Shown here: positions 16,657-24,120 of the stretch, piece after piece
Position numbering within the stretch: the stretch's first letter is position 1
Layout: the number at the start of each line of letters is the position of its first letter
Source: an uncultured Cytophagia bacterium
GTDB lineage: Bacteria; Zhuqueibacterota; Zhuqueibacteria; Thermofontimicrobiales; Thermofontimicrobiaceae
Assembly: GCA_964472785.1 (NCBI GenBank)
Contig: CAYYMH010000004.1
Coordinates: forward strand, 66,995 to 130,994
Direction of reading: 5' to 3'
DNA: 64,000 bases
Notes under the pieces: model-generated
Seen by the model: only the letters and a program-made list of their open reading frames with translations
Told to the model about the DNA's origin: nothing
The model's database searches: none
Made by a program: the position numbers and the translations under genes

Positions 16657-17430
16657 TTAAAACCAAAACATTCGGAAAATATTAAAACCTAACCGATAAT
16701 CATTATCAGCAATATCCAGATCGCCGCCGGAAACATACATATCGGTCGTTAATCCAATGGCATTGGTAATCACGACTTGAAAAACGTGCCCGCCTATTTT
16801 ATAATCCAGACCTGCGCCCCAACTGTTCGTCTTTTGTTTGTATCCGTCAACCACTGGAACCCATTCACCGATCAAAGCTAAATTATCGAAAAGCAAAAAT
16901 CGCCCACCGACGCCCAACGAAAACGTATCTTCCGACAGCGGATTCCCATAATTGGTATTTGTTGAAAAACCCGGAACTAAAATGATCGTAATCGAATTGC
17001 TTAGCTGACGCGAAATGAGCGCCTGAATATTAAATTTCATATTTTCAGAACGCCACACGTGCTCGCAGGGCTCAGGTTCAGTGAACAGACTGCCTCCTCC
17101 GTTCAGTCCAAACGAAAAAGGCCAGTCGCCTTGCTCGATTGGTAGCCATTTGAGTGATAATTCGAACTCGTGCTTGGTATTCGCATGTCCCAAGCTCAGG
17201 CTCAAATTATCACGGATTCCAAACCCCAAACTGATAAAAATGGAAGCAGGTCCATTCAAACCAAAATAAGTATCGTACCCACTACGAATCGTCGGATAGA
17301 ATCGGTGCGACACCCGAAACAACACATCCTTTTTGTCAAGCATTTTCGTTGTTGGCAGATTTATCAGTCGGGTCGCACTAAAATCCGGATCGAAAAATCG
17401 GTTTACTTCTTCTTTAGTTCCGGACTGGTC
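16657..17430 (-). CDS. DUF5777 family outer-membrane beta-barrel (C-terminal frame of a frameshifted fusion)
   Basis: Frame is open upstream of the track start, reading DQSGTKEEVNRFFDPDFSATRLINLPTTKM. Has FRVSHRF, GGHVFQVVITN and C-terminal GFNIFRMFWF. No signal peptide or RBS of its own. Confidence 0.8.
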   Translation of the reverse strand, partial: DQSGTKEEVNRFFDPDFSATRLINLPTTKMLDKKDVLFRVSHRFYPTIRSGYDTYFGLNGPASIFISLGFGIRDNLSLSLGHANTKHEFELSLKWLPIEQGDWPFSFGLNGGGSLFTEPEPCEHVWRSENMKFNIQALISRQLSNSITIILVPGFSTNTNYGNPLSEDTFSLGVGGRFLLFDNLALIGEWVPVVDGYKQKTNSWGAGLDYKIGGHVFQVVITNAIGLTTDMYVSGGDLDIADNDYRLGFNIFRMFWF

Positions 17431-17912
17431 TTTTTTTTTTCAGGTTTTTCTAATTTGATTGTTTCTTTTACCGCTTCCGGTTCTTTCAAACTGAAAATCC
17501 ATTTTTCGATGATTTCAATTTCCTCATCCACCAATGGTGGCGCTTCCACCGGCATTCTGTTGTCAACGATACCTTCCCCGCCTTTTACTTTCATCAAAAG
17601 ATAGCTCCGCTCCGGTCGTTTTGTGTCCACTAATTTCAATGTATCTATTTGCAAACTGGGAACATTGACAATCGCTTCGACAAATTTATCATCCTCAAGA
17701 TTCAACTTTTTCTTGGGATATTTGCCCCGATGACATCCGGCAACACTACAATGTTTTTTAAAAACAACTCTGACATCATTTAGCAGTTGCTCTTGTTTGA
17801 CTTGCTCCTTCGTATGCTTTTCTGATTTTGCTTTATCCTGATTATCGTTGGCAAAAATAATCCCTATTACGATCAAGGAAAAGACAAGAAAAATTGAAAT
17901 AATTTTTTTCAT
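17403..17912 (-). CDS. Exported c-type cytochrome-like domain (CSVAGCH; planctomycete cytochrome c-like), N-terminal frame of the fusion
   Basis: Signal peptide MKKIISIFLVFSLIVIGIIFA; CX4CH motif; SYLLMKV...RMP (axial Met candidate); GGAG Shine-Dalgarno. Confidence 0.75.
   Translation of the reverse strand: MKKIISIFLVFSLIVIGIIFANDNQDKAKSEKHTKEQVKQEQLLNDVRVVFKKHCSVAGCHRGKYPKKKLNLEDDKFVEAIVNVPSLQIDTLKLVDTKRPERSYLLMKVKGGEGIVDNRMPVEAPPLVDEEIEIIEKWIFSLKEPEAVKETIKLEKPEKKKTSPELKKK
17430..17440 (-). other. Slippery site: A10 run containing A_AAA_AAG
   Basis: mRNA GAA AAA AAA AAG ACC; a -1 shift or one extra A continues as GAC CAG TCC into the DUF5777 frame. Confidence 0.6.
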
Positions 17913-19349: not shown

Positions 19350-20153
19350 CTACTTGATCAAAATACATTTCTTTGTTTGATAACTGTCTTGAAATTTCAC
19401 CTGATAAACATAAATGCCTGATGGAACGTCTTGTCCGTTAAAGTCGCTGCCATCCCATTCAAACCTGAATTGTCCGGCTTGACTGTGATTTTGTTGAGCT
19501 TCAAAAACCATTTCACCGCTCAAATTATAAATTCGAATAAGCACATTATCCGCATCATCAATCTGGTAGCGAATCATCGTACTTGAATTGAACGGATTCG
19601 GATAATTTTGATAAACTGTGAATTGTTCCGGGATATTGGATTTGTTCATTGCTACATTCGTCCCGCTTTTTTGGGCTGTTTTTTCTGCTGTCGGTGTCGG
19701 ATCGTCTCCTGACGTGCCAAAATTCCCGTTAACCGCATTGCCGGTAAAATTGAATGTCACCGATTCGACATCCGCGCCGGGAGCAACCCAACCCACATTC
19801 CAGTTCCTCGCATTTGAGTTGGAATGTGTTGCTTCGCCACTTTGAATTTTTGCGTTATTTCCGGGATTGGACAATGTCCCAGCAGAAACTTTCAAATTAA
19901 AGCCTCCTTTGCTGCCAACTGGACCGCCAGTTACTGTAATTGCCAGTGTGTAGGTTTCTCCTGAAACGTATCCATCGGTGAAGATATCGGGAGTTGCATT
20001 CAACGTTATAGCAGAATTTCCTTCTGATAACGAACCGTGACATGTACAACCGGACGTCGTGACACCTGTCTTACCAGATGAGCTTGAAATCAAATAACTC
20101 GTAAATCCAACCAATAAAATGCCCACGAACAATAATGATATTTTGTTATCCAT
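19350..20153 (-). CDS. Secreted Reeler-like (choice-of-anchor V-like) protein with a T9SS-type/FlgD C-terminal domain
   Basis: Signal peptide; GCTCHG motif; GGFNLKVSAGTL...ATH; C-terminal YQNYPNPFNSST...WDG.D..G..VPSGIYVY. Confidence 0.7.
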   Translation of the reverse strand: MDNKISLLFVGILLVGFTSYLISSSSGKTGVTTSGCTCHGSLSEGNSAITLNATPDIFTDGYVSGETYTLAITVTGGPVGSKGGFNLKVSAGTLSNPGNNAKIQSGEATHSNSNARNWNVGWVAPGADVESVTFNFTGNAVNGNFGTSGDDPTPTAEKTAQKSGTNVAMNKSNIPEQFTVYQNYPNPFNSSTMIRYQIDDADNVLIRIYNLSGEMVFEAQQNHSQAGQFRFEWDGSDFNGQDVPSGIYVYQVKFQDSYQTKKCILIK

Positions 20154-22576: not shown

Positions 22577-23956
22577 TTACTCGTAAACTTCGATCCACGT
22601 CGATGCCGTGTTGACCAGAATTCTTTCACTTTCCTCTTCGGGAACTCCCAAATATTTTGCCACAGGTTCAACTAATTTTTGGTAATACATTACAGCTTTA
22701 AACGTTACTTTACCGACAGGTATATCTTCGGGTAATTCCCAGGTGAATGTCTCAATTTTGGTTTCGCGCGGACCGATTCGATAATCCACACCAAGCGATG
22801 CTGTGTTCCACTGCATGATCGTCATCCGACCTTGCGGATCAAAATATGGCATGCGAAAAATCCGGTTCCCAATTGGCACGCCATCTCGCTGAACACCTTT
22901 AAAATCCGGGTCTTGTTTGGGAATGCCCATATCCTGATAAGCCAGCACATCCGCAGCTATGATATATTCTTCTCCTTCAAATCCTTTTTTATCCACCGGC
23001 AAATGGTACTCTTTTCCATTGGCATCTGTCGCTGTTACATGCAGCCACACAATGCGATCTTCGACTGAACCGGTCGGAAATTTATGGCCTGTTTTGGCAT
23101 TAAATAGCTGGACTTTAACAACGGCAACATCATCATACTCAATTTCCCGTTCCTCCGGATGCATCCTCAATTCTATCGTACCGGCGATTTTTCCAGGATC
23201 GTGGGCGCCATGAAACAGGTGTTGTGAAACCATACTCTCTTCAGCCATTTTTGCGTTTTTTCCCCATGCTTTGGGCATGTGACATTGATGGCACGGTACT
23301 CCCTCTTCAGCATAAGGTCCTTCTTTCCATTCAATGTGAGTTGATTTTACCCAAATACCAAAGGGCGACTTTTCGTTATGGCAATTCGCGCAAAACTCTG
23401 CCTGTTGCATAAAATCACTTTCTTCCGTGTCATGATGCGGCGATTCCAAACCGGGCTTGTTGCCCCATTTTTTCAGCCCCGGCTGCGACACATAACTGAA
23501 GTTGAAGGGTACATCTTCACCTTTGTAACTGTTAAAGGGTACATCTTCACCTTTGTAACTGTTAATGGTGTGACATACATCGCAGCTCACACTCTCGTTG
23601 GCTCGAGAATTTTCTTCAGGCCGTGGCGGTGGCACATCCCCGGCTAAAAATGCAAGCGGGGCATGGCAGCCGTTACAGCCATGGGATACAGACAAAAATT
23701 TCTCGTCCACTTTGCCGTGAGCAACTGCCAGATCGAAATATTCAATCTCGTCCCAGTGATGCGTATAAGCCTGCGACATCATCGACTGCTGCCATTGGTA
23801 ATAAATATCCACGTGGCAACTTTTGCACGCTTCCGGCTTTTCGTACTGATCGTACGATTTTGTGCCCAGCGCTTCTTCACCTGCAGGCAAATCCTGGCCG
23901 AATATTATCGCCGGACAAAATAACATCAGTAGCATCGAAATTTTTAATCGATTCAT
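22577..23956 (-). CDS. Periplasmic pentaheme c-type cytochrome
   Basis: Five CxxCH motifs (CKSCH, CNGCH, CDVCH, CANCH, CHQCH); signal peptide; C-terminal domain with GHKFPTG; AGGAG Shine-Dalgarno before ATG 23956. Confidence 0.88.
   Translation of the reverse strand: MNRLKISMLLMLFCPAIIFGQDLPAGEEALGTKSYDQYEKPEACKSCHVDIYYQWQQSMMSQAYTHHWDEIEYFDLAVAHGKVDEKFLSVSHGCNGCHAPLAFLAGDVPPPRPEENSRANESVSCDVCHTINSYKGEDVPFNSYKGEDVPFNFSYVSQPGLKKWGNKPGLESPHHDTEESDFMQQAEFCANCHNEKSPFGIWVKSTHIEWKEGPYAEEGVPCHQCHMPKAWGKNAKMAEESMVSQHLFHGAHDPGKIAGTIELRMHPEEREIEYDDVAVVKVQLFNAKTGHKFPTGSVEDRIVWLHVTATDANGKEYHLPVDKKGFEGEEYIIAADVLAYQDMGIPKQDPDFKGVQRDGVPIGNRIFRMPYFDPQGRMTIMQWNTASLGVDYRIGPRETKIETFTWELPEDIPVGKVTFKAVMYYQKLVEPVAKYLGVPEEESERILVNTASTWIEVYE
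23505..23565. repeat. Perfect 30-bp tandem duplication inside the cytochrome gene (NSYKGEDVPF x2)
   Basis: AAGGGTACATCTTCACCTTTGTAACTGTTA repeated at 23505 and 23535. Confidence 0.95.
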
Positions 23957-24120
23957 TTCAAGGCTCCTATTTAATTTTAGCACATAGTAATCCGTCGAAA
24001 AACGAATTTAAGAATAACGCTCAAAATTATTTTAAAAATTACACACATGTTCGACTGATGACTAACTTGTTGAACATTGACGTCTTACCTTTTAAGCAGA
24101 ACGCTGATCGCTAATTTAAT

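Follow-up and report, generated by a model that had tools for sequence, protein, structure and literature searches.

A conserved poly-A tract as a probable recoding signal between the cytochrome and beta-barrel parts of a split bacterial gene

The stretch of DNA analysed here (the window: 64,000 nucleotides, positions 66,995 to 130,994 of contig CAYYMH010000004.1 in the assembly GCA_964472785.1 of an uncultured Cytophagia bacterium) carries on its minus strand a gene for a cytochrome fused to a DUF5777 outer-membrane beta-barrel, in which the reading frame is broken at a run of ten A's (A10). We propose, with a probability of about 0.75, that this split is explained by programmed recoding. The two frames would form one gene encoding a signal peptide, a cytochrome domain with a CX4CH motif and the barrel, interrupted at the A10 run in a disordered linker. 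Standard decoding would give an exported cytochrome domain of 169 amino acids that ends in a short Lys-rich stretch. In some of the expression events, the equivalent of one base would be gained at the run and a fusion of 418 amino acids made, either through the addition of an extra A by the RNA polymerase (the favoured route) or through a -1 slip of the ribosome on A_AAA_AAA/G. A recoding site of this kind (-1 frameshift or transcriptional slippage) had been put forward in a first-pass annotation, and the proposal is supported by the pattern among orthologs, by the selection acting on the sequence and by a genome-wide control. On these comparative grounds, the poly-A tract would be a conserved and selected recoding signal in KSB1, Aminicenantes, UBP1 and other lineages. 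The anatomy of the locus, its conservation, its recurrence and the selection on it were read directly; how the shift occurs, in what ratio the two products are made and what they do is what we infer from them.

The two overlapping frames meet at the A10 run (Table 1). The upstream open reading frame (ORF1, zero frame) starts with the ATG at 17912 and encodes a signal-peptide-like N-terminus, MKKIISIFLVFSLIVIGIIFA, followed by the CX4CH motif. Its 3' end reads GAA AAA AAA AAG ACC AGT CCG GAA CTA AAG AAG AAG TAA; the stop codon TAA (17405-17403) is the ninth codon after AAG and the product ends in the Lys-rich tail EKKKTSPELKKK. The heptamer A_AAA_AAG, at 17436-17430, has the phase that a -1 shift requires, and apart from the A10 the window contains only two other A/T runs of at least nine nucleotides. 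The downstream frame (ORF2, -1 frame) is closed on its 5' side by a TGA (17442-17440) directly abutting the run; it is open from 17439 to its stop codon at 16659-16657 and begins KKKDQSGTKEEVNRFFDPDFSATRLINLPTTKM. The first ATG of this frame, at 17343, is located downstream of position 1 of the DUF5777 profile, and no ATG, GTG or TTG is present in the -1 frame between the A10 run and this ATG. The addition of one A, or a -1 shift, joins the signal peptide, the cytochrome and the barrel in a single protein of 418 amino acids. When the minus strand was read again, the anatomy given at first pass (frames, A10, heptamer, position of the stop codon and length of the fusion) proved accurate in every detail; the barrel frame had also been described as devoid of a signal peptide of its own, with which our reading agrees, and it has no start codon either ahead of the first barrel strand.

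The conceptual fusion of 418 amino acids was used as query sequence to detect relatives. More than 70 proteins of 390-420 amino acids cover 90-100% of this query at 40-55% identity, and these fused homologues align across the junction without interruption. From whole genomes, GTDB species genomes and metagenomes, 195 loci were gathered, of which 163 are unique, and they were classed by tblastn with the cytochrome and barrel parts queried separately. Both parts are in one frame at about 150 of the 163 unique loci, and the conceptual fusion can be aligned over its whole length with these naturally fused homologues. Judging from this distribution, the cytochrome-barrel fusion is the normal product of the family. 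Two loci that could have been taken for variants of the split were set aside. In L077 (Gemmatimonadota), considered as a split in the opposite frame, the upstream match is a neighbouring lipoprotein cytochrome and the barrel (P0171, 298 amino acids) is apparently a separate gene. In L065 (OY969762.1), a chromosome-level metagenome-assembled genome, the frame breaks inside the barrel, probably by a sequencing error.

The split itself is found in about ten lineages: the window (WIN), L001, the L002 group, L003/L004, L083, L092, L105, L193, L197 and L198. Every one of them requires a -1 shift (equivalent to one additional A) at an A8-A10 run in the same linker, and no frame-junction split in the opposite direction was detected in these lineages. 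The comparison of orthologs, named at first pass as a way to check the proposal, favours recoding: the more distant orthologs are fused, and the lineages closest to the window (L001, the L002 group and L003/L004) are split in the same way, keep the A-run and have neither an independent start nor a signal peptide for the barrel. The junction is GAA AAA AAA ACT in L001 (a closed genome of 5.2 Mb), GTG GAA AAA AAA ACT TTA in all members of the L002 group (L002, L012, L174, L195 and L196) and GTA AAA AAA AAG TCC in L003/L004. It is GGA AAA AAA AAG CCC in the three GC-rich loci L083, L105 and L198, and CAA AAA AAA AAT in L092 (Aminicenantes). L197 is split with A8 and its fused relatives have A9. 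L193 (Ga0209636_10030139) is a -1 split rescued at an A9 run, with a deletion of one nucleotide 22 nucleotides upstream of the run; its barrel frame stops again after 91 codons, and this locus is possibly a decaying copy or a poor contig.

On the tree, built from 156 loci, seven changes are needed to explain the split state, at least six of them forced by well-supported branches, and fused and split loci occur as sister pairs (L063/L105, L186/L092 and L117/L193). We suggest that the default written in the DNA may have flipped repeatedly in evolution between a fused gene truncated by slippage and a split gene fused by slippage. Within lineages, the split is fixed. The 13 distinct sequences in the 90%-identity cluster of the L002 barrel (P0085), which come from assemblies of NCBI, JGI, ENA and Logan, have all been called as barrel only, and the cluster of the L003 lineage (P0093) contains four distinct sequences, all of 256 amino acids. 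Among the 5.8 billion clusters searched, no fused protein is more than 71% identical to the L002 barrel.

Both frames of the split genes bear the mark of selection. For the barrel, the ratio of nonsynonymous to synonymous substitution rates (dN/dS) is 0.077, at a synonymous rate (dS) of 0.88, between the split loci L002 and L012, and 0.08 between L002 and L174; it is 0.096 for the fused pair L007/L006. By this measure, purifying selection on the barrel is as strong in the split genes as in the fused ones. The variable sites were then counted by codon position in five ungapped sequences of the L002 lineage (stretches of 570 nucleotides, up to 17% different). In the upstream cytochrome part, read in the zero frame, they are distributed over positions 1, 2 and 3 as 16, 6 and 44, and in the overlap of 29 nucleotides after the run as 1, 0 and 4, in the same frame. 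Read in the -1 frame, the segment from the zero-frame stop to the first ATG of the barrel frame gives 3, 2 and 9, and the barrel gives 16, 3 and 34. The changes include one synonymous double change, AGG to CGA. Just past the zero-frame stop, and before any start codon, the wobble periodicity of the zero frame gives way to that of the -1 frame. Since the overlap varies at the third positions of the zero frame, the tail of the short product, TLDK[V/I]KKLKK-stop, is conserved; and since the periodicity of the -1 frame is established before any ATG, the segment devoid of a start codon is apparently translated, by ribosomes that enter this frame at the run. The 21 nucleotides around the run, GTGGAAAAAAAAACTTTAGAC, are invariant in the five sequences.

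The A-run is itself selected at the level of nucleotides. The linker contains a run of at least A8 at 47 of the 163 unique loci and an A9 or A10 at 31 of them, and the run is present in all ten split lineages. A9 or A10 is kept in loci with a guanine plus cytosine (GC) content of 59-68%, in which AAA makes up no more than 0-39% of the remaining Lys codons. A comparison inside the same genes is provided by the motif PKKK[LM] of the cytochrome domain, found in 14 loci: its KKK is always interrupted by AAG, with a longest A-run of 3-6, and the linker of these same 14 loci has A9 or A10. The string A9-GCCC is common to the KSB1 family, UBP1 and other lineages, in which it is read in three phases, as K-K-S-P, as K-K-K-A or as K-K-K-P-stop (for instance L007 1430-1444, L055, L083 2543-2556, L105 2292-2305 and L198 1099-1112). 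As it recurs in different phases, its conservation would be at the nucleotide level rather than at the protein level. In every fused gene with an A-run except L176, each of the two alternative frames reaches a stop within 4-24 codons. The ending KKKP-stop is shared by the zero frame of the GC-rich split genes and by the frame obtained by removal of one A from the GC-rich fused genes.

The simplest alternative, already named at first pass, is an error of assembly or sequencing in this particular window: the true DNA would have A11 and the gene would be an ordinary fused one. Undercalled homopolymers are the commonest indel error, a fused gene is what the family normally has, and the low-depth Logan contigs of the DNA runs X2 and X3 stop short of the A-run. 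We nevertheless regard this explanation as very improbable. The Logan contig of run X1, produced by an independent assembler, also has A10, at a depth of 16.7; six fused relatives have been assembled with A10, so this length can be called; and the same split is observed in about ten lineages and about 20 independent assemblies. In the genome of 4.66 Mb, only one of the 210 A/T runs of at least nine nucleotides lies where two long ORFs that are in different frames meet, and as the sole such case the A10 of the window is hardly there by chance. Moreover, none of the five variable sites in the overlap of the L002 lineage is at a third position of the -1 frame, where about 64% would be expected, which is incompatible with a truly fused gene. 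The agreement of the assemblies, the selection on the zero-frame tail and the clean genome-wide control therefore all contradict a homopolymer error. As a separate observation, this genome (40% GC) contains 193 A/T runs of exactly nine nucleotides, for about 85 expected from the base composition, and most of the 210 runs lie outside long ORFs by a crude stop-to-stop test.

Phase variation, the other option of the first-pass annotation, would have replication slippage switch the fusion ON and OFF, the assembled allele being OFF without any recoding by polymerase or ribosome. Such a switch is unlikely, even though tracts of A9-A11 are mutational hot spots and the sister pairs, together with the A8 of L197 facing the A9 of the L007 clade, indicate that the state of the DNA has switched in the course of evolution. 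A contingency locus differs among strains that are almost identical, and no such variation is seen at the A-run of the cytochrome-barrel gene. The A9 is invariant in the five DNA variants of the L002 lineage, whose 13 protein variants are all split with no ON allele in the protein collection, and it is also invariant in the fused clade L006/L007/L115-L117 (seven members), L197 being the single exception. Phase variation thus fits poorly with a run of invariable length within lineages, and a barrel permanently OFF would not hold a dN/dS of 0.08. This last value, with the intact barrel and its full-length Pfam match, also speaks against gene fission or decay, in which the cytochrome would be a gene of its own and the barrel either a pseudogene in decay or a protein with its own site of initiation. 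Gene callers do annotate two genes here, with various internal ATG, GTG or TTG starts. These starts are not conserved, they fall within or beyond the first strand of the barrel and they provide no signal peptide, whereas genuine stand-alone DUF5777 proteins (P0088, P0108, P0117 and P0119) have one. With, in addition, the wobble periodicity of the -1 frame in the upstream segment that has no start codon, fission is scarcely credible.

Several points weigh against programmed recoding. The A10 of the window is read from two assemblies, probably of the same sample, and one-base deletions in homopolymers are the commonest sequencing error, to which it can be added that long reads may be the source of L001 and of some other genomes. 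The window lineage has no close relative, the nearest being 64% identical. L197, with its A8, and L193 could be plain mutations or errors. Slippage itself is argued from comparative evidence, and we infer haem binding by the CX4CH domain, which makes it a putative monohaem cytochrome. Finally, no conserved downstream hairpin and no upstream stimulator resembling a Shine-Dalgarno sequence were detected when eight junctions were folded, and the genome carries a tRNA-Lys(CUU) besides the tRNA-Lys(UUU).

These last two points bear on the mechanism. In seven of the eight junctions, the z-scores of folding are between -1.0 and +0.2; one strong hairpin is found in L083, 27 nucleotides downstream. The lack of stimulators weakens an efficient ribosomal -1 frameshift, and transcriptional slippage does not require them. 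Judging by Escherichia coli dnaX, the presence of tRNA-Lys(CUU) in this genome lowers the slipperiness at AAG; with both Lys tRNAs in the genome (which also has a tRNA-Sec gene), the argument of the E. coli type for A_AAA_AAG does not apply here. Transcriptional slippage is the mechanism that we favour over -1 ribosomal frameshifting, because the split genes almost always have at least nine A's, because no downstream structure is conserved, because the genome has the cognate tRNA-Lys(CUU) for AAG and because the conserved stops of the fused members would be accounted for if slippage went both ways. From nine A's upwards, many bacterial genomes show signs of selection against slippage (PMC1088944).

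ORF2 matches the Pfam family DUF5777 (PF19089) with an E-value of 1.8e-51 and a score of 175 bits, for a gathering cut-off of 23.1. The match covers positions 1-247 of the 247 of the profile and residues 20-258 of ORF2; position 1 is aligned with residue 20 (SATRLINLPTT). The Pfam search of ORF1 gave no significant match and its NCBIfam matches are all below threshold. A profile search of the solved structures in the PDB gave nothing significant, with an E-value of only 0.23 for the match to cytochrome c-552. In an alignment of 16 homologues, C55, C60, H61 and M120-P121 are invariant, and the CX4CH motif and the Met-Pro pair are invariant across 60 homologues.

The AlphaFold (AF2) model used is that of a natural fused homologue, P0005, with a mean predicted local distance difference test score (pLDDT) of 80.6. 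It is composed of a helical N-terminal domain, a linker (residues 138-164) predicted to be disordered, with a pLDDT below 30, and a beta-barrel with 14 strand segments according to DSSP. The A-run falls within this linker joining the two domains, and since the linker is predicted to be disordered, changes of its residues should be tolerated. The solved folds closest to the modelled barrel are the porins NanC, KdgM and OmpG (barrels of 12 and 14 strands). A plausible role is electron transfer at the outer membrane, by a module that would pair the anchored form with the short one as its soluble periplasmic partner; the form anchored by the barrel is possibly an electron conduit. Stand-alone DUF5777 barrels with their own signal peptide and without a cytochrome also exist (P0088, P0108, P0111, P0115, P0117, P0119 and P0120), and the barrel therefore works without a covalently attached cytochrome in some organisms. 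In the literature, we found no paper mentioning DUF5777 and none linking transcriptional slippage to outer-membrane cytochromes; a paper on metal cycling in KSB1 does not cover the cytochrome-barrel gene.

Among the known systems, the closest precedent would be tssM1 of the type VI secretion system of Citrobacter rodentium and Yersinia pseudotuberculosis, where transcriptional frameshifting takes place at an A11 and both length variants are needed (PMC4256274). In both cases, the gene of an envelope protein is interrupted just after a long A-run, and in tssM1 extra A's in the mRNA restore the frame. The present family differs by its cytochrome and barrel parts, by runs of A9-A10 instead of A11, by its occurrence in several phyla and in both split and fused configurations, and by being known from sequence alone. 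The slippery sequences are those of dnaX, which makes two products with a common N-terminus (tau and gamma) by transcriptional slippage at an A9 in Thermus thermophilus (PMC1088944) and by a -1 ribosomal frameshift at A_AAA_AAG in E. coli (PMC1088944 and references therein). As in the cytochrome-barrel family, the dnaX homologues differ in route and in default and yet arrive at the same outcome. The default of dnaX is the long form and the short form is obtained by slippage, which matches the fused members with an A-run and is the opposite of the window gene; and, unlike E. coli dnaX, the cytochrome-barrel junctions have no Shine-Dalgarno or hairpin stimulators that we could find. In mxiE of Shigella and in the transposases of insertion sequences, slippage at a run of nine A's or T's is needed for the longer product (PMC1088944). 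There also, two overlapping ORFs are fused by one non-templated nucleotide, and the default of the window gene is that of mxiE; the present gene is neither a regulator nor a mobile element, and it joins a periplasmic redox domain to a membrane barrel.

With regard to architecture, the fusion resembles Cyc2, the fused cytochrome-porin of iron oxidisers, which has the motif PXFAR[Q/K][T/Y], a single CXXCH and a porin of 16 strands (PMC8406198); that paper mentions no recoding of Cyc2. The two have in common a signal peptide, a small cytochrome domain with a single haem motif, a fused outer-membrane barrel and a length of about 400 amino acids. The window protein is nevertheless not a member of the Cyc2 family: its motif VVFKKHCSVAGCH is a CX4CH, PXFAR is absent, and its barrel is a DUF5777 with 14 DSSP segments and matches to barrels of 12 and 14 strands.

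In E. coli copA, a -1 frameshift at a domain boundary produces CopA(Z). As would be the case here, a slippery site located where two domains of a membrane protein meet allows the N-terminal one, which binds a metal or cofactor, to be made as a separate soluble protein; copA belongs to a different family, its default is the full-length protein and its shift is ribosomal, with an mRNA stimulator. To our knowledge, few non-mobile bacterial genes depend on programmed slippage (dnaX, prfB, copA, tssM and mxiE). The class of mechanism is known, and this instance of it, in a new gene family, is new. It would add to them a case with deep conservation among phyla without cultured members (KSB1, Aminicenantes and UBP1), with a natural evolutionary control in the same site occurring in both fused and split configurations. 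A broader proposal, which we put at somewhat short of even odds, is that the poly-A tract is an ancient switch shared across phyla: every carrier would make both a free and a barrel-tethered cytochrome, the flips of the default would tune their ratio and two-way slippage of the RNA polymerase would supply the minority form. If this is true, transcriptional infidelity would determine the stoichiometry of a module for electron transfer in the outer membrane. In practice, annotation pipelines split or truncate these genes into a "hypothetical protein" and a DUF5777 protein without a signal peptide, so that metabolic reconstructions miss a putative redox protein of the outer membrane. The polishing of assemblies should leave the A-run in place and not treat it as a homopolymer error. 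DUF5777 also gains a testable functional context, that of a cytochrome-porin similar but unrelated to Cyc2, with a Cyc2-like gene nearby.

Table 1. Positions in the window of the elements of the cytochrome-barrel gene and of neighbouring genes.
Feature	Position	Strand	Basis or remark
ORF1 (zero frame), 169 amino acids and stop	17403..17912	-	ORF reading; predicted short product
CX4CH putative haem-binding motif, C55-SVAG-C60-H61	17730..17750	-	read from sequence
A10 slippery run, proposed site of slippage or shift	17431..17440	-	read from sequence
Shift window and dual-coding overlap	17406..17439	-	bounded by the -1-frame TGA (5') and the zero-frame TAA (3')
ORF2 (-1 frame), 260 codons and stop: linker, then DUF5777 outer-membrane beta-barrel	16657..17439	-	Pfam PF19089
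Upstream partner, lipoprotein-type CX4CH cytochrome, 143 amino acids	17935..18366	-	weak Cytochrom_C and SO2930-type dihaem matches
Downstream multi-pass membrane protein, 156 amino acids	15960..16430	-	ORF; no Pfam match
Cyc2-like protein, 429 amino acids	21147-22436	-	AIPAFARRY...CTTCH...PRL near the N-terminus; long beta-rich C-terminal part

The protein encoded directly upstream has a lipobox (WIGC), a CX4CH motif in the form CAIAGCH and a SYLVIK motif, and is a paralog of the ORF1 domain. This lipoprotein cytochrome is kept at the same place in L001, L002, L105, L195 and L198 and, by group, in KSB1, UBP1 and GC-rich relatives. The membrane protein encoded downstream probably belongs to the same operon as the cytochrome-barrel gene; a gene for a protein of 155 amino acids occupies the equivalent position in L001, L002, L003, L195 and L196. 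The gene for the Cyc2-like fused cytochrome-porin is located about 3.2 kb from the cytochrome-barrel gene. Its product fits the Cyc2 consensus (AXPXFAR[Q/K][T/Y], CXXCH and PXL) except for an R at the [Q/K] position, and it adjoins the gene of a multihaem cytochrome of 468 amino acids (22577-23983, minus strand). Between the two cytochrome-barrel loci, a protein of 267 amino acids (19350-20153, minus strand) has an N-terminal GCTCHG and a C-terminal sorting domain of the type IX secretion system (Por_Secre_tail / CHU_C); a protein of 171 amino acids with the same sorting domain is also a neighbour in L001.

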